Shown: positions 2,042 to 23,700, counted from the stretch's first letter. The stretch is DNA of 64,000 nucleotides from a virus (IMGVR_UViG_3300032331_001766:32001-96000); one strand, 5' to 3'. Made by a program: numbers and translations. The notes: generated from the letters alone by a model not told the origin.

Positions 2042-2338
2042 GTGGCTAGACAATTTCTAACCCCACTTACATTAGCGCTATTAGAAGAAAATCCAGCTAG
2101 CCCAATTGCTGGACAAATTTATTATAATACGACAGAACAAACAATCAAAGCGTATAACGGAATTGTTTGGTACGATGTAGCTGGACCTAAAGAAATTCTT
2201 GAGCACACTCACGGAACAGATGGCGCAGTAAATGAAGTGTTGTTTGCAGATTACGTTGATGAAGATAGAGTCTTTGCAAACTCTGGAAACATAGCTTCAA
2301 GTTTTATATATGATTATATTGATGGGGGTGGTGCATAA
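2042..2338 (+). CDS. Small virion protein, paralogous to the N-terminus of 192..2039
   Basis: MARQFLT...GQIYYNTT vs MARLFVT...GQIYFNTT; GTG start. Confidence 0.65.
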   Translation: MARQFLTPLTLALLEENPASPIAGQIYYNTTEQTIKAYNGIVWYDVAGPKEILEHTHGTDGAVNEVLFADYVDEDRVFANSGNIASSFIYDYIDGGGA

Positions 2339-5300: not shown

Positions 5301-6324
5301 TACAGTAACTACAATACTTGGAAATACATATACAACATTAGAAGGATTTACATCAATCTCTGCAACAACATTTACTGGTGATTTTACTGGAAATTTGACA
5401 GGAAATGCATCTACGGTAACAAATGGTATTTATACAACTGGCACATACGCAAATCCAGCTTGGCTTACATCTTTAAGCGCAACAAAAGTTGGTTTAGGAA
5501 ATGTTGAGAATACAGCTCTTTCAACATGGACTGGAAGCACTTCATTAGTTACACTAGGTACAATTACAGATGGAACATGGTCTGCAAATACAATTGCCTT
5601 AAATAAAGGTGGAACTGGTGCAACTACACAAATTGGAGCAGCAAATGCAATATTACCATCACAGACAACAAATGCAAATAAATATTTAACTACAGATGGC
5701 TCAAATGTTTCATGGGCATCGGTTCCAGCAGGATATAATGCACCAACAATTGGTACAACATTATTACAGTCTGGAACGACTTATCCAGGATTTGCTAATT
5801 TACAATTAGCAACTGCAACACTAGATAATGCAACAATTAATGCTGCAACAATGACTGGGGCTATTATAGTACCAACCCCAACAGCAAATAGCCATGCAGC
5901 AACAAAATTATATACAGACACAGCAGCAACAAATGCAGCAACAGCTGCTGGAACAATAGAAAGAACATATACAAATGATCGTTTAGACATAGTTCCATTA
6001 GATGATATAAGCACATTATTTAATGGGTCTGAGTCTAGATTCCCAGCAAAGGTCGGTGGAACGAAAATAGATATTACTAACCCGCTTAGACTTTTGATAA
6101 ACATTAATGGTATAATTCAAATGTTGGGTAATCAAGATAACCATTGGTTGTCGCCGATTAATGAAGATGGATTTTATATAGATGGAGACGGATATATAGA
6201 ATTTGGGGAGCCAATACCATTTGGTTCTACATTTGATGCAAGGCTTATGCCAGGCAAGACAAGCAATACTTTAGAAAAATCAAGATATCCGTTCAGAGCA
6301 ACAGATATATTACTAGGAGCGTAA
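2338..6324 (+). CDS. Long fibre protein with Mtd-N (major tropism determinant N-terminal)-like domain
   Basis: N-terminus IQLRRDTAANWTSANPVLANGEMGIETDT.K.KIGNG is typical of Mtd_N/hyaluronidase-N; repeated TLTNKTLT and ELNxLDG motifs; 1328 aa. Confidence 0.75.
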   Translation: MAIRIQLRRDTAANWTSANPVLANGEMGIETDTLKAKIGNGSAAWSTRPYINVLPSELTELAQDAVNSAIVAGVGLDKTYDDAGNTITLDIDSTVATKTFAAELLTNATKSNIVITGDQNGLTITAENGVADSTTDNLAEGSTNKYFTDERAQDAVGNALGNGLKYTDSTGAIEPNLTTAGGIKIDVSGKLAADSQYVTFNTETQTLTNKTLTTPKVNENVALTSTSTELNILDGATLSTTELNYVDGVTSAIQTQIDNKASLSGATFTGAISGTSLTLSGDLTVNGTTTNINSTNLTVEDKNIVLGDTATPSDATADGGGITLKGSTDKTFAWSDATDSWTSSENINLASGKSYTINGTNIKNVSETLTNKTLTSPTITSPTVSGLYLSDNSVTFEGQGGDDQYETILSVENPTADRTIILPDASDRLVGRATEDTLTNKTLTLPKINDNTLLTATSTELNVLDGITASTSELNKLDGVTASTAEINTLTGITASASELNILDGATLSTTELNYVQNVTSSIQTQLNSKQPKITGVSDTEIGYLDGVTSAIQTQIDSKLPKAGGTMTGAIAMGTNKITGLGTPTDNTDASTKNYVDLAAAASITSSNSTTTTKLGDYTIDGTAGNTVTSRIATAKGQANDYTDSAISGLSNTVTTEYVPLAILAQEDGVATLNSSGYVPLTQLDPVVVTTTGGTIPLAKLDSTVVLTTSAQTLTNKTLTSPKINENVALTTTATELNYVGGVTSSIQTQLGTKLNLSGGTMTGALTLSAAPTSDLHAATKLYVDNVTAGINFHESVHAASVSNLSTIYNNGTSGVGATLTADTNRAFSTLDGESVVVGQRVLIKNQTDSKQNGIYTLTTLGSGSAPWVLTRATDADNNPVGEMKTGDFVFVQNGTINASIGYINNSTANPIVIGTSNITYTEFNAGKTVVAGTGLTEATPGTLSIDTGITANLSGAQTLTNKTISGSSNTLTNIANNSLVNNSITLGTVTTILGNTYTTLEGFTSISATTFTGDFTGNLTGNASTVTNGIYTTGTYANPAWLTSLSATKVGLGNVENTALSTWTGSTSLVTLGTITDGTWSANTIALNKGGTGATTQIGAANAILPSQTTNANKYLTTDGSNVSWASVPAGYNAPTIGTTLLQSGTTYPGFANLQLATATLDNATINAATMTGAIIVPTPTANSHAATKLYTDTAATNAATAAGTIERTYTNDRLDIVPLDDISTLFNGSESRFPAKVGGTKIDITNPLRLLININGIIQMLGNQDNHWLSPINEDGFYIDGDGYIEFGEPIPFGSTFDARLMPGKTSNTLEKSRYPFRATDILLGA
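3706..3900 (+). repeat. Five tandem 13-aa repeats (STxELNxLDGxTA) in the fibre shaft
   Basis: TSTELNVLDGITA / STSELNKLDGVTA / STAEINTLTGITA / SASELNILDGATL / STTELNYVQNVTS. Confidence 0.85.
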
Positions 6325-6329: not shown

Positions 6330-9300
6330 ATGGCAAGAAAAATTTTATTAGAAACAGCATATACATTTACACCGTCAGCAAATACGGTTGTAATTCCAAA
6401 GACAATTTTGAGAGAAAGACTGTTACTTATCACAAATGTGACATCTAACCAAGTTATTTATAACTTCTCAGATCCAAGTTTAAAAGCAACATCATATATT
6501 ACTAACACAGACTCAAGCGCAAATGAGTCTACAACAATTGTATTAAGCTACAATACAGCAGCAATGCTTTCAACAGACAAGCTTTCCTTTACAATTGATG
6601 AATATGCTGAAAAATTTGAGCCAGCAGAGACATTGATGGACCCAACAAATAAGTTGAGAGTATCAACTCCACAATCTCTTATCGATACCGACTTTGAGTA
6701 TGGTACACAGATTTCTAAGTGGGAAAATTTAGGTCTTTATAACAATAGACCATTTTCTTATACAAGCCCAACACAAATTTCAAATATTTCAGGAATTGCA
6801 ATGGCTAATGGTTCTAGAACTGTTACAGTCACACTTTCATCTGGAGCAGCTCCAGCAAACAATACACCAATTGTTGTACAGGATACATACCTACAAGCAG
6901 CAAATGGTAACTTTATTATCGAAACAGGCGGAGGAGGATCATCATTTACTTACACTGCGTCATCAACAAATACTACATCAGTGACAGCGATCTTTGATCC
7001 AAATAAAACAGTAGTATCAACAGGAAATCTATTTTCTGGTGCACAAATTGGTGGAACACCAACTCTTTCATATTCTGGTCGCAAAATTACAGTAACAACT
7101 ACAATTCCTCATGGCCTAGCATTAGGAAATGAAATTGTAGTAATGGGTGTAACAGCTTCAACAAATGCACCAAATGGAAATATGGAAGTTGCACAGATTA
7201 CAAGCTCTACAGTCTTCTCATACTATGCAGATGCTATTCCAACTGGAACTTTAGCTGCAGGTTCAATTTACGTAAGACCACAAGCATCATTCTCACACAG
7301 ACCAGCAGATGGCGGAGTTATTTTCGGTACAAACTCTGGTTCAAATTATGCTTCAGCAACAAGACAGACAAGACGTTATTTCCGTTACCAATCAGGTAAA
7401 GGTATTCAATTCTCATCTGGAACAATTTTAAAGCCATACGCAGGTATTGATTCAATTACTTGGGATGGATCTATTGTTACAGTTCAAACAAAAGAAAGAC
7501 ACAATATTCAGCCAGGAACAGTTGTTAAGGTTGGTGGTTGTGATCAGTATCAATTTAATGGAACATTTACAATTACAAGCATTATAGCTTTTGATAAGTT
7601 CCAGTACACACCAACAACTTCACCAACAACATCAATTGCTACTGGTGCATTTTATGCTTCAGTAGAAGGATGGACTGGCTGCCAAAATAGACTAGGCGGA
7701 TTTGATAGTCAAAATGGTTTATTCTTTGAGTATGATGGTAAGACATTGTATGCAGTTAGAAGAAATTCTACATTCCAGGCTTCTGGAAGAGTTAGCGTAA
7801 CAAATGGAACATCTTTGGTTACACAAACATCTTCAACATTCCCAACCTACTTTGCAAAGCAATTTGCACCAGGAGACTACATTGTAATTAGAGGTCAATC
7901 ATATAAGATTCAAGATATTGCATCAAACGTATCTATGACAATTACGCCAGCATATCGTGGAGCAACCACAGATTATGCAATTCTTTCAAAGACTCAAGAA
8001 ACTCGTATTGCTCAATCATCGTTTAATATTGATAAACTAGACGGAACAGGCCCATCACAATACAATCTAGACTTAGGCAAAATGCAGATGTTCTATATTG
8101 ACTATACATGGTATGGTGCTGGTTTCGTAAGATGGGGTGTTAGAGGTCCAAAAGGTAACGTTGTTTATGTACACAAGATGCCTAACAACAACATGAATAC
8201 AGAAGCTTATATGCGTTCTGGAAACTTGCCAGGAAGATATGAATCTACAACAACACCTCCTTATACATTTACTAAGGCAGATATGCTAACAACAGATTCA
8301 GCTATATCAGTTTCAGATACTACCAAATTCCCAGACGCAGGTACACTTGTAGTTAGAAATGCAAGCACATACGAGTATGTAAACTATACTGGAAAAACAC
8401 AGTCTACTGGTATTTACACCACTACAGCTACAGGAACATCTGGAGTCGGAACTCTTGTTGTAGGTTCAAATACTGGACTAGCCGTAGGAATGACTGCAAC
8501 TGGTATTGGAGTTGGTTATGGCGCAACAATTACAAACGTAAACGGAACAGTCATTACTGTATCTGTTGCAAATACATCTGCAGTCAACGGAAACGTTGTA
8601 TTCAGCGGTGGAGCAACATCTGGTACATTCACTGGTTTAACTAGAGCAAAAGCTGGAGAAGCAAGCGTAAGCTTAACAATTGCAGCTGGAGCAAATGGTT
8701 GTACTGGAGTAACAACAACAAACCTACAAGTAGGTATGAGAGTAATTTCTTCAGCTTTCCCTGAAGGAACATATATTTCAAAGATTGTTGGAAGCGAAGT
8801 TACTTTCTCACAAGCAGCACTTTCTGCAAATCCAACTGGAGTAATTTTTGCTCCAATGGGTGCAACATCAGCTCAATTATTTACATATTCTGATACAGCC
8901 CCAACATGTGTTGAATTAGCTTTCCCAACATTCTCAGCATCAATTTCACACTGGGGAACATCAGTAATTATGGATGGTCGCTTTGATGATGATAAGTCGC
9001 TTGTCTTTACATATGGACAAAGAGTTGCAACAGCACTGGCACCAGCACAAAACGTTACAACAACAATCACAGGAACATCTGGAGCGAATACAATTGTAGT
9101 TGGTTCAGGTACAAACTTAGTACCAGGCATGTCAGTGACAGGAACTGGTATCGGAGCAGGAGCAACTGTAACAATTGTTAACGGAACAGGTATTACATTA
9201 TCTGTTAATAACTCAGGAACAGTTTCTGGTAACGGAACATTCTCTGGTGGTAACTCAAAGGCACTATTCTCAATTAGAGTAGCCCCTTCAGTAGATAATG

Positions 9301-9758
9301 GTATCGCAGCAGCGTTCGGTGCTCGTGAACTTGTAAACAGAATGCAGCTAACACTTAGAGCTCTTGATGTTACAACTTCAACAGCAGGTGCAAACCTACT
9401 CGTAACAGCCGTTTTGAATGGCCTTCCAAGCTCATCAACTCCTTGGACAAATGCAGTAGGAAATGCAGCAGGAGCAGTTAACTCTTCTCTAGCACAAATT
9501 GCAGATTATGCTGGTGGTTTAACAACAGTGTCTGGTGGAGAAGTAACAGCTGGATTCTTCGTTGGAACTGGTGCAAACTCAATCGATCTTTCAGGAGTTC
9601 GTGATCTTGGTAACTCTGTCCTTGGTGGCGGAGGAGTAAATGCTAACACAAATATCTATCCAGATGGACCAGATGTACTTACAGTAACAATTTCAAACCT
9701 TGGTACTACATCTGCATCAGTGTTCGGTAGATTATCTTGGACAGAAGCTCAGGCATAA
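6330..9758 (+). CDS. Large beta-rich virion structural protein
   Basis: 1142 aa, Thr/Gly/Ser-rich, repeated small beta domains (HGL..G..I.V.G type; VGM.VTG.GIG.GAT), in the fibre cluster. Confidence 0.65.
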   Translation: MARKILLETAYTFTPSANTVVIPKTILRERLLLITNVTSNQVIYNFSDPSLKATSYITNTDSSANESTTIVLSYNTAAMLSTDKLSFTIDEYAEKFEPAETLMDPTNKLRVSTPQSLIDTDFEYGTQISKWENLGLYNNRPFSYTSPTQISNISGIAMANGSRTVTVTLSSGAAPANNTPIVVQDTYLQAANGNFIIETGGGGSSFTYTASSTNTTSVTAIFDPNKTVVSTGNLFSGAQIGGTPTLSYSGRKITVTTTIPHGLALGNEIVVMGVTASTNAPNGNMEVAQITSSTVFSYYADAIPTGTLAAGSIYVRPQASFSHRPADGGVIFGTNSGSNYASATRQTRRYFRYQSGKGIQFSSGTILKPYAGIDSITWDGSIVTVQTKERHNIQPGTVVKVGGCDQYQFNGTFTITSIIAFDKFQYTPTTSPTTSIATGAFYASVEGWTGCQNRLGGFDSQNGLFFEYDGKTLYAVRRNSTFQASGRVSVTNGTSLVTQTSSTFPTYFAKQFAPGDYIVIRGQSYKIQDIASNVSMTITPAYRGATTDYAILSKTQETRIAQSSFNIDKLDGTGPSQYNLDLGKMQMFYIDYTWYGAGFVRWGVRGPKGNVVYVHKMPNNNMNTEAYMRSGNLPGRYESTTTPPYTFTKADMLTTDSAISVSDTTKFPDAGTLVVRNASTYEYVNYTGKTQSTGIYTTTATGTSGVGTLVVGSNTGLAVGMTATGIGVGYGATITNVNGTVITVSVANTSAVNGNVVFSGGATSGTFTGLTRAKAGEASVSLTIAAGANGCTGVTTTNLQVGMRVISSAFPEGTYISKIVGSEVTFSQAALSANPTGVIFAPMGATSAQLFTYSDTAPTCVELAFPTFSASISHWGTSVIMDGRFDDDKSLVFTYGQRVATALAPAQNVTTTITGTSGANTIVVGSGTNLVPGMSVTGTGIGAGATVTIVNGTGITLSVNNSGTVSGNGTFSGGNSKALFSIRVAPSVDNGIAAAFGARELVNRMQLTLRALDVTTSTAGANLLVTAVLNGLPSSSTPWTNAVGNAAGAVNSSLAQIADYAGGLTTVSGGEVTAGFFVGTGANSIDLSGVRDLGNSVLGGGGVNANTNIYPDGPDVLTVTISNLGTTSASVFGRLSWTEAQA

Positions 9759-9770
9759 GGAGAATATAAA

Positions 9771-10271
9771 TTGTCTATCAATAAGGCTAAAGTCAATTAC
9801 GATGATGCCCTTGAGGTCAAATCTATAGTCTCATCTGATTCAGCGGGATTTAATGGTGTAACCTCTTTGGCTGGTACTACCAAATTACTAGGAATACTTG
9901 ATTTATCTCAAGGAACAGTAGTGTTTGCAGATGGTATCCAGTCAAAGCAGGGAACACCTTCCCTAACTGATATTAAAGTTAAATATTTTAACTACACATT
10001 ATCATCATTAGATGATAGAGATAGTATTATTGAAATGAATAATGTTGCTGCAAATACATTAACTGTTCCATTAGATTCTACAACTAACTTTCCTATTGGA
10101 ACAACTATTGATATAATTCAAGCAAATGCTGGTCAAACTACAGTTGTTGCAACAGCAGGAGTTATTATTAATGCTACACCTGGTTTACAGCTAAGACAAA
10201 AATGGTCTGTTGCTACATTATTAAAAAGAGCACCAAATACATGGTTGCTTTTTGGCGACTTAACAGCTTAA
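9771..10271 (+). CDS. Fibre-associated virion protein
   Basis: C-terminal FPIGTTIDIIQ...ATLLKRAPNTWLLFGDL motif seen at phage fibre C-termini; SD AAGGAG, TTG start. Confidence 0.6.
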   Translation: MSINKAKVNYDDALEVKSIVSSDSAGFNGVTSLAGTTKLLGILDLSQGTVVFADGIQSKQGTPSLTDIKVKYFNYTLSSLDDRDSIIEMNNVAANTLTVPLDSTTNFPIGTTIDIIQANAGQTTVVATAGVIINATPGLQLRQKWSVATLLKRAPNTWLLFGDLTA

Positions 10272-10282: not shown

Positions 10283-11911
10283 ATGAGTAAAAAGGCTGGT
10301 AGAAAATCTGATCAATTAGCTGGTGACTTTCAGATACCATCTAAACCAAATAAACCTACCGCTGTAGATGTTGGAACTAATAGACTATATAATAATGGTT
10401 CACATATTGTTTCATTTACATATCCTTCAGGTCAGCCACCAGTTTCTTCATATACAGTTATTTCTTCTCCTGGAGGATTTACAAATGTTGGAGCATCAAG
10501 TCCAATTACAGTTGTAGGTCTACAGTCTAATATTGATTATACTTGGACAGTAACTGCAACTAACGTAAATGGAACATCAGACCCTTCAGATCCTTCTGAT
10601 GCAGTAAAAGCTACAACAGTTCCAGAAGCACCAATTAATGTAACAGCAATATCAAATACAACTGGACCAGGGCATAATGCAAACACTCCTGATCTTCGTG
10701 GACAAGATACTGTTTCGTGGACAACTCCAACAAATAATGGTGGAAAACCAATATCAACTTATACTGTTTTATCATCAGATGCAGTAGCTCAACCAGGAGG
10801 TCTTGGTCCTTCTTATACCGTAACAGCACCAACAACAACTATAAATATTAGAGAAACTATGGGTACTACTCAAACCTATACGGTTACTGCAAATAATGCT
10901 AATGGTTCATCTTTAGCTGGAGCAAGTTCCTCTGTTACTACATTCTTTTCCCCACCAGTATTCTTTTCGCCACCTCTATTCTTTGCGCCACCGCTGTTCT
11001 TCAGCCCACCGCTGTTCTTCAGCCCACCCCTATTTTTTGCGCCACCGCTGTTCTTCAGCCCACCGCTGTTCTTCAGCCCACCTCTATTCTTTGCGCCACC
11101 GCTGTTCTTCAGCCCACCGCTGTTTTTCAGCCCACCTCTATTTTTTGCGCCACCGCTGTTCTTCAGCCCACCAGGGTTCTTTAATCCTCCTGGATTCTTT
11201 TCACCACCAGCGTTCTTTGCGCCACCTCTATTTTTTGCGCCACCGCTGTTCTTTTCCCCACCAGCATTCTTTTCACCACCAGGGTTTTTTAACCCTCCTG
11301 GATTCTTTTCACCACCAAGATTCTTTGCACCCCCATTATTTTTCTCCCCACCAAGATTCTTTTCCCCACCAGCATTTTGTATTGCAGAAAATACATTAGT
11401 CTTAACTACAGACGGATACAAGAAGGCAAAAGATATTGAAGTTGGTGATATTTTATCAACAGTCTCATTTAATAATCTTCCTTTAGGAGATAGTAATTGT
11501 TCAATAGGTAATATTACAGATAAATGTATTGATATTGTTGACAAATGGAACTCTGAAGGACTACATGGTGTTAATTTCCTAGAGTCAAAAGTTACAGATA
11601 TTAAAGAAGCAGTATATGAGTCTTCAATCTATTTTAATGATGATTTTTCAAAAGAGCTATCTTTATCAGAACAGATACTTGTAAACAGAGATGAAAAGTT
11701 TACATTTAAAACAACATCTGAAATTAAAGTAGGAGATACTATAATATCTTACTCAGATAAAGATTTAATTGATATTAAAGTTGAGTCTATTAATATTGTA
11801 GAAAAAGAAACAAAAACATTTTTATTCTACAGAGATCCATATGGATTAATTATTGCAGACGGTATGCTTGCATATAATGGTTGTCCAGCCCTTTCCTTGA
11901 CCAACAACTAA
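10283..11911 (+). CDS. FN3-like domains + (FFxPPx)24 repeat + C-terminal Hint (intein/Hedgehog-like) domain protein
   Basis: Two FN3-like units (..YTWTVTATNVNGTSDPS; W..P.NNGGKPISTY..YTVTANNANGSS); 24 hexapeptide repeats; then CIAENTLVLTTDGYKKAKDIEVGD...IKVGDTI...IIADGMLAYN, the Hint block A to C-terminal pattern. Confidence 0.85.
   Translation: MSKKAGRKSDQLAGDFQIPSKPNKPTAVDVGTNRLYNNGSHIVSFTYPSGQPPVSSYTVISSPGGFTNVGASSPITVVGLQSNIDYTWTVTATNVNGTSDPSDPSDAVKATTVPEAPINVTAISNTTGPGHNANTPDLRGQDTVSWTTPTNNGGKPISTYTVLSSDAVAQPGGLGPSYTVTAPTTTINIRETMGTTQTYTVTANNANGSSLAGASSSVTTFFSPPVFFSPPLFFAPPLFFSPPLFFSPPLFFAPPLFFSPPLFFSPPLFFAPPLFFSPPLFFSPPLFFAPPLFFSPPGFFNPPGFFSPPAFFAPPLFFAPPLFFSPPAFFSPPGFFNPPGFFSPPRFFAPPLFFSPPRFFSPPAFCIAENTLVLTTDGYKKAKDIEVGDILSTVSFNNLPLGDSNCSIGNITDKCIDIVDKWNSEGLHGVNFLESKVTDIKEAVYESSIYFNDDFSKELSLSEQILVNRDEKFTFKTTSEIKVGDTIISYSDKDLIDIKVESINIVEKETKTFLFYRDPYGLIIADGMLAYNGCPALSLTNN
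10943..11374 (+). repeat. 24 x 18-bp coding tandem repeat encoding FF[S/A/N]PP[L/G/A/R/V]
   Basis: Read directly from the sequence; locally GC-rich; ends one codon (Phe) before the Hint Cys at 11378. Confidence 0.97.
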
Positions 11912-11925
11912 CTAAATGCTATAGT
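11897..11925 (+). promoter_or_regulatory. Sigma70-type promoter for the oxygenase cluster (leaderless)
   Basis: TTGACC-17 bp-TATAGT with extended -10 TG; ATG at 11932 lies 6 nt past the -10 with no SD. Confidence 0.75.
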
Positions 11926-11931
11926 ATATTT

Positions 11932-12564
11932 ATGTACTCTAGAAAAGAAGAAGTCTTTCATGGCATCTGGAAATATTCAGATGTTTTTACTCCAGAGCTG
12001 GATTTAATTAATAGAATTGAATCAGAAGTAGAAAAAGAAGAGTTTTCCTGGAGAAAAGGTACAGTTGGGTTAGATGCTGAATATCCAGAATACAGAGATT
12101 GTTATGATCTTAAATTAAGTAGACTAGGCAAATCTCATCCCTTATATCAGGATATTTATAATGCTCAAGTACCATGTGTAAATGATTATTGCTCAATGTA
12201 TACAATTGAAATGAATTATTGGGAATGGACTAATATTGTTAAATATGAACCAGGACAACATTTTCAAGAACATGCTGATCATGGCTGGTCATATATATCA
12301 ACTGTATCTTTAGTTGGATATCCAAATGATAATTATGAAGGCGGAGATCTTTATTTTCCAAAACTTAATGTAACAATAAAGCCAAAAGCTGGAGACTTAT
12401 ATATATTCCCATCAGCATATATTTATTCACATGTTGCAAGACCAGTTTTATCTGGAACAAAGTATTGTTTTGCTACGATGTTAGATTATAATGATGACGC
12501 ACATTCAAAAGAATTTGAAGATTATTTAGATAAAAAATATAACAAAGAAAAGAGATTAATATAA
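11932..12564 (+). CDS. 2OG-Fe(II) oxygenase, prolyl 4-hydroxylase-like (#1)
   Basis: HAD...NDNYEGGDLYF...KPKAGD...FPS...H...GTKY. The ORF-track start at 11881 (TTG) is probably too early. Confidence 0.88.
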   Translation: MYSRKEEVFHGIWKYSDVFTPELDLINRIESEVEKEEFSWRKGTVGLDAEYPEYRDCYDLKLSRLGKSHPLYQDIYNAQVPCVNDYCSMYTIEMNYWEWTNIVKYEPGQHFQEHADHGWSYISTVSLVGYPNDNYEGGDLYFPKLNVTIKPKAGDLYIFPSAYIYSHVARPVLSGTKYCFATMLDYNDDAHSKEFEDYLDKKYNKEKRLI

Positions 12565-13226
12565 TGTTACCAAATGCGGAACTTCTTTATCCAGGTATTA
12601 TTGTTTATAGAAATGTTTTTAGTGGATTAAATGTAATTGATAGGCTAGAAGAAGTTCTTTCTAATGATAGCTATGAAGAAAAATGGGCAGAGGCGTCTGT
12701 TGGATATTCTAAGCTAGATAAGTCTTATAGAGATTGCTGGGATCACCATATTAAAAAGAACATATTTGATGATACGGGTAAACCAGAATCTCAATTAAAG
12801 CTTGAATCAATATGGCAGGACTGCAGAGATGCACAAGATGCTGCTGTAGAAGATTATAGAGCAATGTTTAACTTACCGCCATTTGGATATTGGGAATCTT
12901 TTAATTTCATTAAATATGGTGCAGGTCAACATTTTCAAGTACATTCAGATCACGGATATTCTTATGTTTGTGTACTTTCTTCTGTTGGATATATTAACGA
13001 TGATTATGATGGCGGGGAACTATATTTTGATAAACTTGGACTTACCATAAAGCCAAAAGCAGGAGATCTTTATTTATTTCCATCTTCATATATATATTCT
13101 CATTCTGCAATGCCAGTTACAAAAGGTATTAAGTATTCTGTAGTTACAATGCTTGACTACTCAATAGCTACACATTCTCCAGAATATCGTGAGCTTGAAC
13201 AAAAGTATGCACTAGTAAAAGAATAA
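12564..13226 (+). CDS. 2OG-Fe(II) oxygenase, prolyl 4-hydroxylase-like (#2)
   Basis: HSD...NDDYDGGELYF...H...GIKY; close paralog of #1. Confidence 0.88.
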   Translation: MLPNAELLYPGIIVYRNVFSGLNVIDRLEEVLSNDSYEEKWAEASVGYSKLDKSYRDCWDHHIKKNIFDDTGKPESQLKLESIWQDCRDAQDAAVEDYRAMFNLPPFGYWESFNFIKYGAGQHFQVHSDHGYSYVCVLSSVGYINDDYDGGELYFDKLGLTIKPKAGDLYLFPSSYIYSHSAMPVTKGIKYSVVTMLDYSIATHSPEYRELEQKYALVKE

Positions 13227-13235
13227 GGAATATTA

Positions 13236-13946
13236 ATGATTAATTTAGAAGTTTATAGATCAGGTCCAGATTCAGCAAACATAGAACCTCTTTCTGGTAA
13301 AAGACAGTGGATGGATGATAGTCAAGAAAAGCATGCATATAGATGTTTCCCTTTGAGCCTATCAAATCAACTGGGATGGTCTTTATCTTTTCCAGAAGAT
13401 ATAACATTTATGTGGGATGGTGAAATTACAACATCTTCAGAAAACGTTAAAGTTCTTCAAGGAGAAAAATATTGTAGTACAGCTAGAGGAAATGCAACAA
13501 TTAGCTTTAATACAAATTTAACTTTTAGAACTGATGCAAATCATAGTTTACTATCATATCCAGTACCAAATCATTTTGTAGATGGAGCAACACCATTTAC
13601 AACTTTAATGAGCACATCATTTTTTGAAGGTCAGCTTCCAGTTTCTTGGAGAATTACAAGGCCATTTACACCAATAACAATTAAGGCAAATGAACCTTTT
13701 ATAGCAATTCTTCCAGTATCATTAACAGAACTTCATTCTTCAGTGGCACAAATAAAGCCAATAGATAACATGAAACCAATATATAGAGAAAAGCCATTAA
13801 CGCTTGAAGGAGCAATAGAGGCTGGGAAAAAAGCAGCAGAAAATGGTGGATGGACAGATTACTATAGAGATGCTGTTGATTATATGGGTAATAAATTAGG
13901 TGAGCATGAAGTAAAGTCAGTTAAGCTAAGAGTAGAAGGTCACTAA
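13236..13946 (+). CDS. DUF6065-like protein
   Basis: HAYRCFPLSLSNQLGW motif and C-terminal EPFIAILP, recalled as the DUF6065 signature. Confidence 0.6.
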   Translation: MINLEVYRSGPDSANIEPLSGKRQWMDDSQEKHAYRCFPLSLSNQLGWSLSFPEDITFMWDGEITTSSENVKVLQGEKYCSTARGNATISFNTNLTFRTDANHSLLSYPVPNHFVDGATPFTTLMSTSFFEGQLPVSWRITRPFTPITIKANEPFIAILPVSLTELHSSVAQIKPIDNMKPIYREKPLTLEGAIEAGKKAAENGGWTDYYRDAVDYMGNKLGEHEVKSVKLRVEGH

Positions 13947-14660
13947 ATGAATAAGATAGGATTTTGGTCAAATCGTATTGCAAATAACGATTCCACTATT
14001 CCTGTTCCCGCAAAGAAAATAATTCCAGAATGGTTTGCAAATGCAAAGAAATATTGGAAAGATGAAAATGATCAAGAGTTTATAGTTGCTCCAGAAGAAA
14101 AGGGTTTAGGGTTTAAATCTTGCCCAGCATTATTAGATATATTTAATTCTGGTTACCTTTTAGTTACACCGTGTGATGTAGTTATATATAAACAAGATAA
14201 TAAAAGATTTGCTGTATCTTCACCAGGCTTTGATGATTTTTGTGAAGCAAGGCCATTTATGGGTGAATTTAATTATCCTCATGGTTATGGAACAGATTCT
14301 TTTCATTGGTTTCCAAACTGGGGATTTGATTTACCAGAAGGATATAGCGCTTTAGTTTTACACCCATTAAATAGATATGAGTTACCTTTTTTAACAACAA
14401 ACGGTATAATTGATAGTGATAGGTATGGCTCTCCAGGATTGATGCCATTTTTTCTTAAAGAAAATTTTACTGGCATAATACCCAAAGGAACTCCATTTGC
14501 ACAAATAATACCCTTCAAGCGTGAAGACTGGAAAGCAGATTACAAATTTTTAGAAGAAAAAGAAATGATTGCAAGACATGAAAAAACTGCAGGTAAATAC
14601 CGTGTTCCATTTGGTGGAATATATAAAAGACATACCTGGGTTCCAAAGAAATACGAATAG
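13947..14660 (+). CDS. Conserved phage protein, probable distant DUF6065/dUTPase-fold relative
   Basis: KSCPALLD...GY, GIIDSD, GTPFAQIIPFKRE motifs, a type often found beside phage 2OG oxygenases. Confidence 0.5.
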   Translation: MNKIGFWSNRIANNDSTIPVPAKKIIPEWFANAKKYWKDENDQEFIVAPEEKGLGFKSCPALLDIFNSGYLLVTPCDVVIYKQDNKRFAVSSPGFDDFCEARPFMGEFNYPHGYGTDSFHWFPNWGFDLPEGYSALVLHPLNRYELPFLTTNGIIDSDRYGSPGLMPFFLKENFTGIIPKGTPFAQIIPFKREDWKADYKFLEEKEMIARHEKTAGKYRVPFGGIYKRHTWVPKKYE

Positions 14661-14668
14661 AGGATGAC

Positions 14669-15346
14669 ATGGATCAAAATTTAGCTTGGGATGAAGGAAT
14701 TAGAACTGCAAGAACTTCTATAACACCTTCAGGATATTTTGGAAACTCTACAGACAATATTGTTGAACTTGAGAATATTGTAACAGAAGAAGAGTGCGAG
14801 TATATCTTAGAGTTTGCTAAACAAAATGAAATTTGGGATGTAACCCGTTCTGCAAAAAATGAAAATGGTAACATCATTTATGATCACAATGTTTGGGCTA
14901 ATCGTGTTGCAACTAAGCCATCTTTAGATCAATGTGATCCAAAAGTTACTGAAATTCTTAATAATATTTATGCAAGAATAAAGCCAAAGATTGAAGAGCA
15001 TTTTAATGTGGAATGTTATCCAACTGGACCATGTGTTGTTAGATGGCCAGTAGGAACAATGCAATGGCCTCATGCAGATAAAGAACTTCATGAGGGTCCA
15101 GATGCTGGAACACCAGGAAACTTTCCATGGTATGACCTAGGAACAGTTATTTATTTTAACGATGACTACGAGGGCGGAAGACTTCATTTTCCAAAACAAG
15201 AAATTGCTTTTAAACCAAAAAAGAGAGCAGCCTACTTCTTTGTAGGAGACTTAAATTATATTCATGGGGTAGATGTAATTACAGATGGAGTAAGATATAC
15301 GTCTCCTTTATTTTGGACAATTACAAAACTGGAGGCAAACAAGTGA
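14669..15346 (+). CDS. 2OG-Fe(II) oxygenase (#3)
   Basis: HAD...YFNDDYEGG...H...GVRY. Confidence 0.88.
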   Translation: MDQNLAWDEGIRTARTSITPSGYFGNSTDNIVELENIVTEEECEYILEFAKQNEIWDVTRSAKNENGNIIYDHNVWANRVATKPSLDQCDPKVTEILNNIYARIKPKIEEHFNVECYPTGPCVVRWPVGTMQWPHADKELHEGPDAGTPGNFPWYDLGTVIYFNDDYEGGRLHFPKQEIAFKPKKRAAYFFVGDLNYIHGVDVITDGVRYTSPLFWTITKLEANK

Positions 15347-16143
15347 TGTCAAACTTTACAATTAAAACTTTATATCCAAAGATTGATGTTTACAAAGGTT
15401 TGCTTCCAGACCATAAAGAAATTTTTGAAGTAATTAAATCTACAGAAGATACAGAAGGAGAACACTATTTTAATAAGTGGACTCCATGGAGCGCATTTGG
15501 TCTTTACTCATCAACTAAATTTAAGGGTGGAGTCCAAGACCAATTAGGAAAAAATGAAATATTTGATAAACAGTATTGGGCAGCAGAAACAGTTTACGAT
15601 GCATATAAAATTGCAGTAGATGACTATATTGAAAGAAATAATGTTATTCTGCCAGAAGGATCAGAACTTGGCTCTTCCTCTTTTTGTAAATATCATAGCA
15701 ATTTAAATGTTTTAAATAATAACTTAACTATGCAATATCATACAGATTTTAAACAAAGCGAAAAAGATATGCCAGGAAATCAGTTCTTCCTAACCTGTAC
15801 TGTTTATATAAATGATGATTATGAAGGCGGAGACATAGAGTTTTATATTGATGGAGATACAGCAGCTTACAAACCAGAGGCTGGAGATATTATGGTGTTC
15901 CCATCTGGAGAGCCGTATTATCATGGAGTCAAAACAGCAAACAATGGAACTAAATATTTAATTAGAAACTTTATGGTTTACCCAAACCCAGGATCAAAAG
16001 AATGGCTTGAAAATCAAGCTAGATATGGTGCTGTTAAATGGGCAAAGATGGAAGAAGAAAGATTATCTAAAGATAAATATGGCGGAAACATATTTATTAA
16101 AGATGGCAAAAGGGTAGACAGTCCTGAAGAAAGGGATCAGTAA
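15346..16143 (+). CDS. 2OG-Fe(II) oxygenase (#4)
   Basis: HTD...YINDDYEGG...YYH...GTKY. SD GGAGG at 15331 supports a start at 15343 (GTG) or 15346 (ATG). Confidence 0.88.
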   Translation: MSNFTIKTLYPKIDVYKGLLPDHKEIFEVIKSTEDTEGEHYFNKWTPWSAFGLYSSTKFKGGVQDQLGKNEIFDKQYWAAETVYDAYKIAVDDYIERNNVILPEGSELGSSSFCKYHSNLNVLNNNLTMQYHTDFKQSEKDMPGNQFFLTCTVYINDDYEGGDIEFYIDGDTAAYKPEAGDIMVFPSGEPYYHGVKTANNGTKYLIRNFMVYPNPGSKEWLENQARYGAVKWAKMEEERLSKDKYGGNIFIKDGKRVDSPEERDQ

Positions 16144-16851
16144 ATGGAGATAGTAGCTTTAAAAGACGACGTATTTGTAATAGATGATTTAATTACACCT
16201 GCAGAATGTCAATCAATCATTGCTTATTTGGATGGTATTGTAAATGCTAATTTATTGCAATGGAACCAGATATCATTTTTTGGATCTTTTGCAATGGGTT
16301 ATTGGCCAAGTGATCCAAACTTGTTACACTTTGGTTTACCAGAAGATTATTTTGCACAACTTAAAAAGAAAATTAAAGATGCTGGAGAAGAATGTTTTAA
16401 GCGTGAATTTTCTGAAGTAAGTTATCATGCACAAAAATGGGTAGAAGGCGCATTTGCTGGTTTTCATTCTGACAATAGTCATGAAGATGGTAGTCCAAGT
16501 GCATTTTATAAAAGTAAGTATGCTGGCTTTTTGTATTTAAATGATAATTTTAATGGTGGTTTTTTAAACTTTAAGCATCATGATATTACCATAAAAGCAA
16601 AGCCAGGAAGACTAGCTTTCTTTAAGGGCGGTTATGGGAATGAGCATGAGGTTACTACAGTTAAAGATGGAGAAAGATATACCGTTGGTTCATTCTGGGA
16701 TAATGCTGATGAAGTTTATACACCAGAACAAGTTGCTGAATGGGAAAAAGAATTAAAAGAAACTAGAGCTTCTCAACAAGAAACATACAAGGAATGGGAA
16801 GAAGCCAAGAAAAATGGAATGATCCCACAATATATAGGTAAATATGATTAA
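16144..16851 (+). CDS. 2OG-Fe(II) oxygenase (#5)
   Basis: HSD...YLNDNFNGG...H...GERY. Confidence 0.88.
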   Translation: MEIVALKDDVFVIDDLITPAECQSIIAYLDGIVNANLLQWNQISFFGSFAMGYWPSDPNLLHFGLPEDYFAQLKKKIKDAGEECFKREFSEVSYHAQKWVEGAFAGFHSDNSHEDGSPSAFYKSKYAGFLYLNDNFNGGFLNFKHHDITIKAKPGRLAFFKGGYGNEHEVTTVKDGERYTVGSFWDNADEVYTPEQVAEWEKELKETRASQQETYKEWEEAKKNGMIPQYIGKYD

Positions 16852-17437
16852 AGAAGTATTACATCCAGAAATTCATTATTATAAAAATGTTATTTCTAAC
16901 CCAAAGGCTTTTGTAAAAGAGTTAGAGGATATGGATAGCTTTCAGTCAACAGTATCTCAAATATCAAAGTGGGAACAGTGGACTGCATCAAATCATGATG
17001 TTGTATATGGATCAGTTAAAAGATGCTTTTTAAATTTGTTTCAAAATACAACAGATGCTGATAGGGTAAATTCAAAGCTCTGCTCTATAGTTGCACACAA
17101 TGTAATTTCTATAGGTGAGCAATATTCCTTAGATTCTGGAATAGACCTCGGATATCTACCAGTATATTTTGGCATTAATAAATATAATGTTGGTGTTCAC
17201 ATGGGCGCACACGTAGATGCATATGATGGGGCTCAAGATGAATCTACTGTTTCTATGGTTATGTATTTAAATGATGACTACGAAGGCGGAGAGATAGAGT
17301 TTCCAGAGCATGGGATATCAATTAAACCAGAAGCTGGAAGCGTAGTCGTATTTGCCTCAAAGGGCGTTTTACATGATCCAAAACCTACAATATCTGGAAC
17401 TAAGTATATGATCCCCATATTCTTTTTCAAAAGATAG
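16844..17437 (+). CDS. 2OG-Fe(II) oxygenase (#6)
   Basis: HVD...YLNDDYEGG...H...GTKY. Confidence 0.88.
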   Translation: MIKEVLHPEIHYYKNVISNPKAFVKELEDMDSFQSTVSQISKWEQWTASNHDVVYGSVKRCFLNLFQNTTDADRVNSKLCSIVAHNVISIGEQYSLDSGIDLGYLPVYFGINKYNVGVHMGAHVDAYDGAQDESTVSMVMYLNDDYEGGEIEFPEHGISIKPEAGSVVVFASKGVLHDPKPTISGTKYMIPIFFFKR

Positions 17438-17458: not shown

Positions 17459-19198
17459 ATGTCATACCAACTTAAAGTAATCAAGGATCAACCAGTAGGG
17501 TTTTGGGCCTTAGATGAAACTTCTGGAACTTCAGCTACAGACTCATCTGGTTGCGGAAATTCTGGCACATATACTGGTGGAATTACAAATGGTCTTATGC
17601 CATTAATTCCAGGCGGACTTCAGGGTTCTTTAATTACTAGTTCAAAATCTATTTCGTTTCCAATAGTAAATAACTATTACGGAAGTTCTGGATATAAAAG
17701 CTTGGCAGATGTAAATTCATTAGATAACGATTGTTCTTTTGAAGTATGGTTTTACCCAAAATTTGCAACAACAAACGAGACTGTCATATTTGGTAACTCA
17801 ACAAATCTAGTTGGTTTATTTTATGATTCTGGAGATATTGTATTTAAATTTGCTCAATATACTGCTAGATATACTTTACAACATATTTCAAAATCTCATC
17901 ATATTGTTGGAACTTATTCACCTTCAGAAATTAAGCTATATATTGATGGTGAGATTAAAGCTACAACATCTATTACAGACCTTCCAAGCCTTTCTCAGAC
18001 TGGTTTAACACTTAACGCTGGTCCAACCATAAGTGCATCAGATTCTTTTGTCATAGACGCCCCTGCGGTTTATAGACATGCATTACCTATATCAAAAATA
18101 ATTAATCATTATTCTGAAATTCAGCCAATACCAGCACATCAAGTTGCATTTCCAGATAGCGGAAGAATATTTGAAATTCAAGATGATAATATATCTACAG
18201 CATATTCATATTCATATCCAGGAAACAAGCCATTAAATTATTTAATAACGGATGGACTTTACTATAATACAGAAGAACAATATATCTCTCTTGTTAAATC
18301 AGATTTAGGTGGGGCATCGTCAATAGAAATTCTTGATTTTATTTCTATCCCTTCAGGAATTGAAGCTAACTCTTCTAAAATTGAATGGAACGGATCAAAT
18401 GGAATTGCAGTTTCAATAAATGATCAGCTATGCGTAAATGGCGGGGAGATTCCAAACTACTCAAAAAATAGCTTTTCTTCAGAAACTGGAATGAACATTA
18501 AGATAACAATATCTTCTTCCGATGTAAGCAAATATATTCCTAGACTATATGGACTTTCAATTACTCTGTACAAGGATCAGACGGTCTTTGCTTCAAATTC
18601 TGCAGACTACATAAATCATTTAAGCACTGAGTCATTTACTCTAGGCAGTAAAAAATATCCAATACTGTCAAGGGATAGCCGAAATGGGGTTAAGACATTT
18701 AGTAGCTCTGGATTTAATTTAAATACAGAAGAACTGATTAGCACGGTAGAATTTTTCTACACCCCCTCAGCTTTGTCTAACAGTGGACTGGTATCTTCAA
18801 TTTCTGGAACAGGGGCTGCTTCAAATTACTCATGGATTACCGCTGGTACCGTAAGCAAGACTAACGTTGCTGGTATATATGTAAATGGTGTAAATAAGAC
18901 ATCTCAGACATTAATATCAAACCTGTTCTCTGCGGGAGAGATTTACCATGTTGTAATTGTATACACTAGCCCTATATCTGGAGCATTAAAATTTAATTCA
19001 TCGGCAGCTGGCTCAGTTTCTTCCACATATCAAAATATTGCCCTGTACCAGACGGCATTTGATGCCACAAAAGTATCTCAGCATTATTCTTTATACACAC
19101 AGAGATCCATATCTTTGGCTGACGATTCGTCAATTACGATGACAGAAAACGGAACCTTTGTATATAACAATGACTGGCTTGTAATACAAAACATATAA
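17459..19198 (+). CDS. LamG/concanavalin A-like domain virion protein
   Basis: PVGFWALDETSGT...FEVWF...HHIVGTY...LYIDG: LamG-like jellyroll signature. Confidence 0.75.
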   Translation: MSYQLKVIKDQPVGFWALDETSGTSATDSSGCGNSGTYTGGITNGLMPLIPGGLQGSLITSSKSISFPIVNNYYGSSGYKSLADVNSLDNDCSFEVWFYPKFATTNETVIFGNSTNLVGLFYDSGDIVFKFAQYTARYTLQHISKSHHIVGTYSPSEIKLYIDGEIKATTSITDLPSLSQTGLTLNAGPTISASDSFVIDAPAVYRHALPISKIINHYSEIQPIPAHQVAFPDSGRIFEIQDDNISTAYSYSYPGNKPLNYLITDGLYYNTEEQYISLVKSDLGGASSIEILDFISIPSGIEANSSKIEWNGSNGIAVSINDQLCVNGGEIPNYSKNSFSSETGMNIKITISSSDVSKYIPRLYGLSITLYKDQTVFASNSADYINHLSTESFTLGSKKYPILSRDSRNGVKTFSSSGFNLNTEELISTVEFFYTPSALSNSGLVSSISGTGAASNYSWITAGTVSKTNVAGIYVNGVNKTSQTLISNLFSAGEIYHVVIVYTSPISGALKFNSSAAGSVSSTYQNIALYQTAFDATKVSQHYSLYTQRSISLADDSSITMTENGTFVYNNDWLVIQNI

Positions 19199-19606: not shown

Positions 19607-21187
19607 ATGGAATTCATGCATGAAGAAGACTCACAAAATATTATTGATATTTCTAATACTGCAGACTGGTTTTCTTTTAAAAAAGAAATAACAACAAGCA
19701 ACGACCCATTTGCTATAGACGTTGAAGAATTAAAAAAGTTTAAAGGTCTAAGCCCAGCATTTCGTAGAAAAATGAATCGTGATTTTTCAAAGTCATTTTC
19801 TGGAATTGATGGAGTTACAACACAACAGAATTTATTGGCTCAAGCAATTACTGGCTACGCAATGTTCGATCTTATCGAGCCACCATATAACCTAGAATAC
19901 CTTTCAAAAATTTATGAAGTTTCAACATATAACTATGCTGCAATTAATGCAAAGGTCTCTAACATTGTTGGTTTAGGATACGACTTTATTGAAACAAAAA
20001 AAACCAATGATGCGTTTGATGCAATAGAAGATGAAAAAGTTTTGGCTAGAGCACGTAAGAAGCTTGGTAAGCTTAGACAAGATATGCAAGAGTGGTTAGA
20101 TACAACAAACGATGAAGATACATTTACTCAAACTTTAATTAAGGTCTATACAGATTTAGAAGCTACTGGAAATGGGTTCCTAGAAATTGGTAGAACGACA
20201 TCAGGCAATATTGGTTACATTGGGCATATTCCAGCAAAGACAATGAGAATAAGAAGATTGCGTGATGGCTTTATTCAATTACTTTATGGCAAGGCTGTGT
20301 ATTTCCGCAACTTTGGAGACTCAGAAACATTGAGTCCAATTACTTCACAAGAAGAAAGACCTAATGAAGTTATTCATTTTAAAAAGTATACTCCTATGAA
20401 TAACTACTATGGAATTCCAGACATCATTGCCGCACAGACAGCGTTGGCTGGTAACGAATTTTCTGGTAGATATAACCTAGACTACTTTGAAAATAAAGCG
20501 GTCCCAAGATATATTATTACAGTAAAGGGAGCAAAGCTTTCACCAGAATCAGAAAGAAAACTTCTTGAGTTTTTTCAGGTTGGATTAAAGGGCAAAAATC
20601 ACAGATCTCTTTACGTTCCGCTACCAGCAGATACCCCAGACTCTAAAGTTGAATTTAAAATGGAGCCAATTGAAGCTGGCAATCAGGAAGGCTCATTTGA
20701 GAAGTATCGCAAATCAAATAGAGACGAAATCCTATTAGCTCACCGTGTGCCAATTAATAAAATTGGAACCCCAGAAGGACTAAGCCTGGCAAATGCTCGT
20801 GATGCAGATAAAACATTTAAAGAGCAAGTATGCCGACCAGCCCAAATGATTCTAGAAAAGAAATTAAATAGAATATTTGAAGAAAAAACAGATGCCCTTC
20901 TACTTAAATTTAATGAATTAACATTGACTGATGCAGATACTCAGTCTAAAATTGATGAGCGTTATTTAAGAATGCAGGTAATTGTTCCTAATGAAGTTAG
21001 AATTAGAAATGGCTGGATCCCACTTGATGGCGGAGATAAAGTCATAGAATTAAAGCCTCAACAAGCAGCAGAACAATCAGCCCAGGCAGGCAAGACAAGA
21101 GCACGGGATGGTGAAAGAGCTGCAAATTCACCAGATAAATCTGGAGAAGGAAGAAATGCAAAAGGCGACGGGAGCAAGGTAGAGTAA
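19607..21187 (+). CDS. Portal protein
   Basis: TGNGFLEI, EVIHFK.Y.P...YYGIP, YFEN.A.P, EIL.AHRVP, PNEVR motifs of HK97/PBSX-type portals; located upstream of protease and capsid. Confidence 0.92.
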   Translation: MEFMHEEDSQNIIDISNTADWFSFKKEITTSNDPFAIDVEELKKFKGLSPAFRRKMNRDFSKSFSGIDGVTTQQNLLAQAITGYAMFDLIEPPYNLEYLSKIYEVSTYNYAAINAKVSNIVGLGYDFIETKKTNDAFDAIEDEKVLARARKKLGKLRQDMQEWLDTTNDEDTFTQTLIKVYTDLEATGNGFLEIGRTTSGNIGYIGHIPAKTMRIRRLRDGFIQLLYGKAVYFRNFGDSETLSPITSQEERPNEVIHFKKYTPMNNYYGIPDIIAAQTALAGNEFSGRYNLDYFENKAVPRYIITVKGAKLSPESERKLLEFFQVGLKGKNHRSLYVPLPADTPDSKVEFKMEPIEAGNQEGSFEKYRKSNRDEILLAHRVPINKIGTPEGLSLANARDADKTFKEQVCRPAQMILEKKLNRIFEEKTDALLLKFNELTLTDADTQSKIDERYLRMQVIVPNEVRIRNGWIPLDGGDKVIELKPQQAAEQSAQAGKTRARDGERAANSPDKSGEGRNAKGDGSKVE

Positions 21188-23623: not shown

Positions 23624-23647
23624 TTAATTTAAGAATTAATCACGGAA

Positions 23648-23680
23648 AGGCCCCCAATTAATTTTGGGGGCTTTTCATTT
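23648..23680 (+). terminator. Rho-independent terminator after capsid gene
   Basis: GCCCCCAA-loop-TTGGGGGC followed by TTTTCATTT. Confidence 0.85.
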
Positions 23681-23691
23681 AAATTCATCAA

Positions 23692-23700
23692 TGCTATAAT
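23692..23700 (+). promoter_or_regulatory. Extended -10 promoter
   Basis: TGCTATAAT, then SD AAGGAG before ATG 23727. Confidence 0.6.

Follow-up and report, generated by a model that had tools for sequence, protein, structure and literature searches.

A phage gene cassette that links a Hint-capped FFxPPx repeat protein to six prolyl-hydroxylase-like oxygenases

IMGVR_UViG_3300032331_001766 is a 113,080-bp virus record of IMG/VR, rated 100% complete, of a phage known from metagenomes only. The stretch of DNA analysed here, referred to as the window, comprises 64,000 nucleotides of this record (bases 32001–96000). The element in question is a cassette in the virion gene region. A gene for a repeat protein ending in a Hint domain is followed by six genes for 2-oxoglutarate (2OG)- and Fe(II)-dependent oxygenases, and two DUF6065-type genes sit between the second and third of these (table 1). 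A first-pass annotation of the window had described six tandem oxygenases with intact motifs and two DUF6065-like genes, without a gap, in a block flanked by fibre genes upstream and by LamG and portal genes downstream. Gene arrangement and setting are both confirmed, one of the two DUF6065 genes proving to be a remote relative. All ten genes are read in the same direction, with overlaps or gaps of at most about 21 nucleotides (nt). Promoter and terminator scans of the cassette stayed at chance level. Searches of 50,697 GenBank phage records by megablast and tblastn gave no match to the cassette, the repeat protein, DUF6065 or the Hint domain.

The anatomy of the repeat-Hint gene was established from its open reading frame (ORF), Pfam matches, a repeat count and a structural model of the Hint domain, and agrees with the FN3–FN3–(FFxPPx)24–Hint order first proposed. 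Only the second FN3 domain is weak; an orthologue at locus L011 carries two fn3 stretches. The FFxPPx units number exactly 24, follow one another directly and are encoded by synonymously varying codons. Tandem Repeats Finder reports periods of 18, 54 and 108 nt. Twelve orthologues from viral contigs have between 10 and 35 copies, with FF and PP strictly kept throughout. Apart from the repeat protein, no ORF of the entire 113-kb genome is strongly Pro-rich. A search of the ESM Atlas returned generic FN3 clusters only. A collagen-like triple helix was considered and rejected: the units have neither Gly at every third residue nor GXY runs and, being devoid of Gly, cannot form such a structure.

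The six oxygenases are diverged members of one enzyme class. Five pass the Pfam cut-off for PF13640 (2OG-FeII_Oxy_3), the third scoring 20.4 against a threshold of 27 bits. The HxD...H facial triad that binds iron is invariant in all six and in a seventh paralogue. About 10 residues past the distal His, in a G-x-K/R-Y context, lies the basic residue that binds 2OG, which is Lys in oxygenases 1, 2, 4 and 6 and Arg in oxygenases 3 and 5. The ORF of oxygenase 1 opens at TTG 11881, and matches to its orthologues begin only at residues 14–18; ATG 11932 is the more likely start. Compared with solved structures, the oxygenase profile matches the prolyl 4-hydroxylase (P4H) of B. anthracis (3itq, 5hv0; 1e-12), P3H1 (4e-10) and the P4H of PBCV-1 (5c5t; 1e-6). 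Further matches include PiuC-type PKHD hydroxylases, collagen P4H, lysyl hydroxylase (LH3) and PHD2; TET-like enzymes are only marginal (E about 0.02). Among solved structures, the nearest relatives by profile are thus hydroxylases that act on prolyl or lysyl residues of proteins, rather than AlkB or TET. The six paralogues correspond to orthogroups conserved over 543 distinct oxygenase ORFs, and would therefore be long-maintained enzymes with distinct specificities. The whole genome (G000) encodes some 14–15 oxygenase-like ORFs as judged by an in-house profile, six of them clustered at the repeat gene.

An AlphaFold2 (AF2) model of DUF6065 (predicted local distance difference test score, pLDDT, 89) has the form of a dUTPase-like beta-barrel. 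When the model was compared with 48,161 chains, dUTPases and dUTPase-related proteins of herpesviruses took the first 13 places (Z 8.4–10.6). Sequence identity to dUTPases is only about 10% (profile E 0.08), and none of the conserved columns of DUF6065 was recognized as a dUTPase motif. On the strength of the model, DUF6065 is assigned a dUTPase-like fold.

Linkage between repeat gene and oxygenases was examined across related viruses. More than 250 IMG/VR loci were retrieved with three Hint alignments and one DUF6065 alignment, and their ORFs were annotated with hidden Markov models built from alignments made here. Repeats were termed PP-rich if the last 90 residues held at least six PP dipeptides, and oxygenases were counted within 8 kb. 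The pooled set comprised 103 distinct Hint proteins on viral contigs with enough flank. The cassette of the window is syntenic throughout its clade (L001–L009). Across the pooled set, 56 of the 60 PP-rich repeats are accompanied by at least three oxygenases (3–9 adjacent) and four by fewer; 38 of the 43 PP-poor repeats have fewer than three (0–2), and five have three or more. The mean number of oxygenases rises from 0.96 where PP is absent to 6.0 where more than 13 PP are present (Spearman's rho 0.75, n = 103). Because relatives share traits by descent, independent contrasts were also counted on the Hint tree. Ten contrasts on well-supported branches include about six in the same direction, none in the opposite direction and about four without change (sign test: median p 0.031, range 0.016–0.125). 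Earlier contrast tests, made with smaller samples, had failed to reach significance (p 0.5 and 0.125), so that support from this source is moderate rather than overwhelming.

The association holds in the reverse direction. DUF6065 alone retrieved 76 loci, of which 52 have more than 1.5 kb of sequence upstream of the enzyme cluster; at each of these 52, an aromatic repeat ORF rich in PP lies immediately upstream. At locus L128 the order is inverted, at least ten oxygenases and two DUF6065 genes preceding the repeat-Hint gene. Locus L085, in a different small-phage context, combines a fibre-tip-like gene, a PASTA-FGFTP-Hint gene and one oxygenase. The linkage of repeat and oxygenases survives rearrangement. 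The co-occurrence expected from the first inspection of the window thus extends to hundreds of contigs, with oxygenase number scaling with PP content. Complete genomes of similar size and synteny (G000, G005 and G001) were compared as well. The second FFxPPx phage, G005, encodes 13 oxygenases above the Pfam cut-off, and the FFxPPx phages have five or six next to the repeat gene. In G001, whose 109-kb genome is syntenic and includes two repeat-Hint genes of the YSFTP type, the in-house profile finds four oxygenases, none of them adjacent.

At many loci a further candidate substrate is near. A gene for a collagen-like protein with Peptidase_S74 comes directly after the oxygenase cluster at 19 of 34 oxygenase-rich and 6 of 28 oxygenase-poor loci. 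Such S74-capped genes (L035:16903–18003; L136:17262–18512) have no counterpart in the window; their products would be another possible substrate. The oxygenases might modify a different virion protein (this collagen-like fibre, the LamG protein or the fibre-tip domain), with the repeat protein as a bystander or a fibre assembly factor. Collagen GXY is a classical P4H substrate, and the P4H of B. anthracis, the best PDB match, acts on collagen-like peptides. The whole genome of the window's phage, however, has no collagen-like ORF, nor has its clade L001–L009, which carries the same six clustered oxygenases. The GXY runs of relatives are short (6–9 triplets; 17–23 in one case) and Pro-poor, and a repeat gene is found at every assessable oxygenase cluster. 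Modification of another virion protein instead of the repeat is for these reasons considered quite improbable.

The C-terminal 177 residues of the repeat protein, from Cys366 (which follows Phe365), have no Pfam match and found nothing meaningful in a sequence search of the PDB. Their identity as a Hint domain comes from structure prediction. An AF2 model built on nine orthologues (pLDDT 85) has as its top Foldseek matches Tetrahymena BIL2 (6tmm; BIL, bacterial intein-like), Hedgehog (1at0), inteins and a Clostridium BIL (2lwy), at E values of 5e-6 to 1e-4, probability 1.0 and template modelling (TM) scores, relative to the target, of 0.65–0.75. Cys1 (Cys366) and the terminal Asn (Asn532, domain Asn167) are invariant in the window's clade. 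The residue that follows this Asn is Gly (Lys in L010), and a tail of 4–12 residues ends the orthologues. A splicing intein was rejected: no Cys, Ser or Thr occupies position +1, and the short tail offers no functional C-extein. Splicing is excluded because the residue after the terminal Asn is Gly; with no nucleophile at +1, cleavage is expected instead. Two assisting His residues deviate from the usual pattern. Block B of the window protein reads S-x-x-E where relatives have S/T-x-x-H, the TxxH motif occurring in other members of the family. At the C-terminus Asn532 is present and the penultimate residue is Tyr, most relatives ending in HN. Within the Hint family the change of block B His to Glu co-occurs with the change of penultimate His to Tyr (endings AYN or VYNAYP), and it does so in a sister clade too. 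The paired replacement suggests an alternative catalytic arrangement rather than decay, to judge from these alignments.

The domain belongs to a large viral family. A Hint profile search of 1.84 billion cluster representatives gave at least 375 cluster matches at E ≤ 1e-3, and in every full-length match the Hint domain is C-terminal and directly follows short aromatic/Pro repeats. Repeat types are FFxPPx, PFFPPYF, PHFPP, FGFSPFxV, FGFTP, YSFTP, FPTFPS, PTPT and VVPP. The Hint alignment, used for a pattern scan over 185,579 prokaryote genomes, turned up no relative there. Among 26 diverse members, nine match Pfam Intein_splicing; relatives also match Hint and PT-HINT. N-termini consist of FN3 or, in one subfamily, of PASTA. 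In the latter, PASTA, a fold that binds peptidoglycan and beta-lactams, replaces FN3 and is followed by FGFTP repeats (L085:9971–10942 and 10 of the 26 diverse members), which suggests contact with the cell wall. An alignment of the 26 members has a single invariant column, Cys1; several members have lost the C-terminal Asn. Since Cys1 is retained where Asn is sometimes lost, formation of a thioester at the junction of repeat and Hint appears to be the conserved step.

Natural variants bear on the purpose of the Hint domain. Many orthologues retrieved with DUF6065 have none and end 4–10 residues past the last PP, which is the product predicted for cleavage at Cys1 in the Hint-bearing forms. 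At L011 a Peptidase_S74 chaperone stands in for the Hint domain; its beginning is joined to the repeat, and the remainder is encoded in a different frame by the following ORF. In this protein (L011:9935–11375) three FN3 domains are combined with some 12 FFxPPx units, after which comes a Ser-rich stretch; the split of S74 could reflect a frameshift, a sequencing error or a true division. A search for further fusions of Peptidase_S74 to repeat genes found L011 alone. The Hint-less orthologues, the S74 variant and the invariant Cys1 together favour a Hint domain that acts as a removable C-terminal cap, and so support the earlier proposal that its removal would leave the repeat at the C-terminus. 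In Hedgehog and BIL proteins the N-terminal part can also be passed on to a nucleophile. By analogy, the thioester might be captured and the repeat tail ligated to a virion protein, a lipid or the host cell wall. The persistence of Cys1 without Asn fits such a route, and so do the PASTA N-termini of some subfamilies. Yet the many orthologues that stop at the same point without a Hint domain mean that ligation, although possible, cannot be essential to the module. Moreover, the Peptidase_S74 used by one relative only cleaves, and no candidate acceptor has been identified. Ligation through the Hint thioester is accordingly held to be rather improbable.

The interpretation favoured here, with a probability of roughly 0.55, is that the repeat belongs to an appendage protein associated with the fibre and is hydroxylated by the oxygenases, and that the Hint domain is a removable cap. 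The proposed course of events is as follows. (i) The cassette, part of the virion module, would produce an appendage protein that is modified after translation. (ii) In the infected cell, the six Fe(II)/2OG oxygenases of the P4H family would hydroxylate prolines of the FFxPPx tail, the paralogues serving different positions or stereochemistries. (iii) The two DUF6065 proteins, with their predicted dUTPase fold, may act as accessory factors. (iv) Following hydroxylation, the Hint domain would remove itself by an N–S acyl shift at Cys366, the thioester being resolved most simply by hydrolysis. Asn532 could also clip off the 10-residue tail. (v) The mature product would then consist of the FN3 domains and a sticky aromatic/(hydroxy)proline tail with a free C-terminus. 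(vi) Finally, this product would probably be mounted near the tip of the tail fibre as an adhesive or structural filament. That the prolines serve as substrates had been suggested at the outset, and linkage, co-variation with PP content and the kinship to P4H enzymes speak for it. Glycosylation, raised at the same time, found no counterpart, the cassette having no glycosyltransferase, and Phe gained no support as a substrate.

Several points count against hydroxylation of the repeat and removal of its cap. The PBCV-1 P4H, the best-studied viral P4H, hydroxylates peptides in vitro, and hydroxyproline was not found in the virion (PMC7019647). Some eight more oxygenase genes are scattered over other parts of the genome, none of them near a repeat gene. 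Exceptions occur to the co-variation: the PP-rich protein of L078/L082 has no oxygenase within 10 kb, and PP-free L097 has four. The independent-contrast test reaches only modest significance, and the association may reflect no more than joint inheritance of the repeat gene and the enzymes in a single cassette. In other lineages a class II ribonucleotide reductase (RNR) fills the slot between repeat and portal, which marks this slot as a plastic accessory region; the enzyme, which is B12-dependent, is seen in YSFTP and FGFSPF lineages (L012:13255–15282; L024:12256–14286). The modelled dUTPase-like fold of DUF6065 hints at nucleotides rather than proteins. Neither assisting His is present in the Hint domain of the window's clade, where Glu stands in block B and Tyr at the penultimate position; activity of the domain there is therefore not assured.

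Some of these observations suit another explanation, in which the oxygenases are accessory or host-takeover enzymes, or act on nucleic acids or small molecules, and merely share a hyperplastic slot with an unmodified, structural repeat protein. Roles of the latter kind have been proposed for many 2OG-Fe(II) oxygenases of cyanophages. PHROG labels the oxygenases auxiliary metabolic genes (phrog_61), and weak Tet_JBP and TET matches, the scattered copies, the RNR in the same slot and the two embedded DUF6065 proteins all agree with such roles. It is harder to reconcile with them that the closest solved relatives are hydroxylases of protein prolines and lysines, that oxygenase number follows the PP content of the adjoining repeat with no opposite contrast, and that the genes stay adjacent even where they have been rearranged or lie in a different kind of phage. 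The PP-repeat gene at all DUF6065-seeded loci with enough flank points the same way. An unmodified repeat protein beside unrelated enzymes is on this evidence unlikely. The term 'dedicated', used of the oxygenase battery in the first-pass annotation, has to be qualified in view of the oxygenases elsewhere, the RNR, the collagen-like fibres after the cluster in about half of the relatives and the dUTPase-like DUF6065.

The neighbouring genes bear on the location of the product. The domain encoded at 9771–10271 is found elsewhere as the C-terminal tip of fibres of 200–2000 residues that begin with Mtd_N. At loci whose gene maps were examined, the gene directly before the repeat gene encodes a fibre-tip domain or another Mtd_N-type fibre, and the pair of fibre-tip and repeat genes is duplicated in L024, L037, L025, L076 and L081. 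Because of this order, the mature protein is tentatively placed near the fibre tip. A complex prediction with three copies of the fibre-tip protein and the N-terminus of the repeat protein scored 0.03 and has no bearing either way. The fibre encoded at 2338–6324 itself has an N-terminal Mtd_N, named after the major tropism determinant of phages with diversity-generating retroelements. This setting also bears on the suggestion that the gene encodes a multicore precursor of the RiPP type (ribosomally synthesized and post-translationally modified peptides), the hexapeptides of which would be modified and then cut out to give small bioactive peptides. Repeated identical cores beside tailoring enzymes do resemble multicore RiPP clusters. 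The gene, however, stands in the virion module, paired with a fibre-tip gene; its product has structural FN3 (or PASTA) domains in place of a leader; the units are contiguous, without spacers or cleavage sites, and vary freely in number from 10 to 35; and the cassette has no protease, cyclase, exporter or transporter genes. A RiPP-like precursor can be given hardly any credence.

Table 1. Genes and features of the cassette, its surroundings and related loci. Coordinates refer to the window unless a genome or locus is named.
Feature	Position	Strand	Remarks
Mtd_N fibre	2338..6324	+	1328 aa
Large fibre protein	6330..9758	+	1142 aa; syntenic in L001–L009
Fibre-tip-domain protein	9771..10271	+	166 aa; equals conserved C-terminal (tip) domain of relatives' long fibres
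Repeat-Hint gene	10283..11911	+	542 aa: basic N-terminal peptide, FN3, weak FN3, (FFxPPx)24, Hint
FN3 domain 1	10394..10600	+	aa 38–106; Pfam fn3 E 1e-7
Probable FN3 domain 2	10709..10912	+	aa ~143–210; Pfam fn3 E 0.005, below cut-off
24 perfect FFxPPx hexapeptides	10943..11374	+	aa 221–364; proposed hydroxylation substrate
Hint/BIL-like domain, putatively autoprocessing	11378..11878	+	Cys366 to Asn532, 167 residues; AF2 model and Foldseek
10-residue tail after terminal Asn	11879..11908	+	begins Gly-Cys; no +1 nucleophile
Oxygenase 1	11932..12564	+	PF13640 3.5e-10
Oxygenase 2	12564..13226	+	PF13640 3e-12
DUF6065 protein a	13236..13946	+	Pfam DUF6065 (PF19541) 4e-36, 125 bits against 26.6-bit cut-off; predicted dUTPase-like beta-barrel
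DUF6065-related protein b (phrog_7084)	13947..14660	+	remote homologue: hhalign probability 90%, E 1.6e-6
Oxygenase 3	14669..15346	+	PF13640 1e-3, below cut-off; phrog_61 5e-16; motifs intact
Oxygenase 4	15313..16143	+	PF13640 2.4e-9; alternative ATG 15346
Oxygenase 5	16144..16851	+	PF13640 2e-8
Oxygenase 6	16844..17437	+	PF13640 1.1e-12; best PDB match B. anthracis P4H
LamG-domain protein, downstream boundary	17459..19198	+	Laminin_G_3 4e-13
Portal protein, downstream context	19607..21187	+	57% identity to Streptomyces phage portals
Scattered small oxygenase-like ORFs (1)	G000: 6857-7381, 9299-9808, 23449-24054, 24389-24949(-), 24940-25530(-)		mostly smaller (170–300 aa)
Scattered small oxygenase-like ORFs (2)	G000: 91009-91908 (window 59009-59908), 105337-105867, 105870-106577(-)
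Sulfotransfer_2 + Asp_Arg_Hydrox	L010:11319-12570; L035:11299-12553; L076:2752-4000; L012:10493-11702
Pairs of ~215–220-aa proteins	L012:11747-13038; L025:11331-12616; L097:6130-7412

Related loci differ in their complement of other enzymes. Most other FFxPPx lineages carry, between the repeat-Hint gene and the oxygenases, genes of the Sulfotransfer_2 and Asp_Arg_Hydrox (Asp/Asn beta-hydroxylase) families. The window's clade lacks both, and their presence suggests further modifications in relatives, namely sulfation and beta-hydroxylation. Beside repeat genes of the FGFSPF/FGFTP type with few oxygenases, pairs of proteins of about 215–220 residues without a Pfam match are found; these may be alternative tailoring enzymes. 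A wider interpretation can be framed, in which the cassette represents a widespread and hitherto unrecognized phage maturation pathway. Five to ten specialized hydroxylases would modify an aromatic/Pro hexapeptide tail exhaustively and position by position, joined by the sulfotransferase and the Asp/Asn beta-hydroxylase in most lineages. DUF6065 would have been recruited to protein modification, and the tail, released or covalently captured via the Hint thioester, would act as a hydroxyproline-rich adhesive on the actinobacterial cell wall. Taken as a whole, this extension is speculative and must be regarded as doubtful.

The host is suggested by phage relations. The portal protein is 57% identical to the portals of Streptomyces phages of 127–134 kb, and the whole genome has a WhiB-family gene (1154–1327 of G000, outside the window); these two features identify an actinobacterial phage. 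WhiB marks it as such, yet its G+C content is merely about 36%. IMG sample identifiers of related contigs point to freshwater lakes. From these relations and identifiers the likely host is a low-GC freshwater actinobacterium. Cultures of Nanopelagicales hosts and phages now exist (PMC10202952). Elsewhere, the window has a single tRNA-Leu gene with anticodon TAA (53266–53339). Among the tail genes lies a 127-residue ORF (39702–40085) of moderately high Pro content (4 PP) that matches no family.

No earlier description of a module of repeat-Hint protein and oxygenases was found in the literature, and we know of no phage with a demonstrated hydroxyproline-containing virion protein. The co-variation points to an undescribed form of virus-encoded protein modification. 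What the numerous 2OG-Fe(II) oxygenases of aquatic phages do has long been a puzzle; adjacency and co-variation here name a concrete candidate substrate. The analysis also defines a large, purely viral Hint family fused to aromatic/Pro repeats, the natural Hint-less and S74-capped variants of which bear on what the domain is for. It finds a family of predicted dUTPase fold, DUF6065, embedded in a context of protein modification. The enzymes could serve in site-specific hydroxylation of proline. As the hosts are probably the abundant low-GC freshwater Actinobacteria, the appendage may play a part in adsorption within a major virus–host system of fresh waters. Were the wider interpretation true, the virion would carry a hydroxyproline-rich adhesive comparable to extensin or mussel glue.

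Known systems share parts of this arrangement. Chlorovirus PBCV-1 likewise encodes a 2OG oxygenase of the P4H family together with Pro-rich repeats. It differs in having one enzyme, a eukaryotic host and no adjacency of this gene to a substrate gene, and no virion hydroxyproline was detected (PMC7019647). In the phages described here, 5–10 diverged paralogues are clustered at one repeat gene and accompanied by Hint and DUF6065. The P4H of B. anthracis (3itq, 5hv0) is the best solved relative of the oxygenases, at 1e-12. Pro-rich repetitive structural or adhesive proteins such as collagen, extensin and mussel-foot protein are substrates of the P4H enzyme class. The phage repeat differs from these in being FFxPPx rather than GXY or SPPPP, in having no Gly and in showing no evident Tyr or 3,4-dihydroxyphenylalanine (DOPA) chemistry.

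The Hint domain resembles those of BIL and Hedgehog proteins in its predicted fold (6tmm, 1at0, 2lwy), in the N-terminal Cys at the cargo junction, in the terminal Asn and in the absence of an endonuclease. Unlike them, it belongs to a separate viral subfamily that always follows aromatic/Pro repeats, the window's copy having no Pfam match; it lacks a sterol-recognition region, and in the window's clade Glu and Tyr stand in for both assisting His residues. A functional parallel is the Peptidase_S74 chaperone of endosialidases and tail fibres, a C-terminal fibre module that cleaves itself off after folding. It takes the place of Hint in L011 and caps collagen-like fibres in the same clusters of relatives. 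Fold and chemistry are unrelated, S74 using a Ser-Lys dyad and Hint a Cys thioester, and L011 is a single locus with a frame break. Marine cyanomyoviruses, finally, have 2OG-Fe(II) oxygenases of the same PHROG family (phrog_61), with many paralogues per genome and some near structural genes. To our knowledge, no substrate of those enzymes has been proposed from gene adjacency. Here, by contrast, the number of paralogues can be predicted from the Pro content of the repeat gene to which they are linked.

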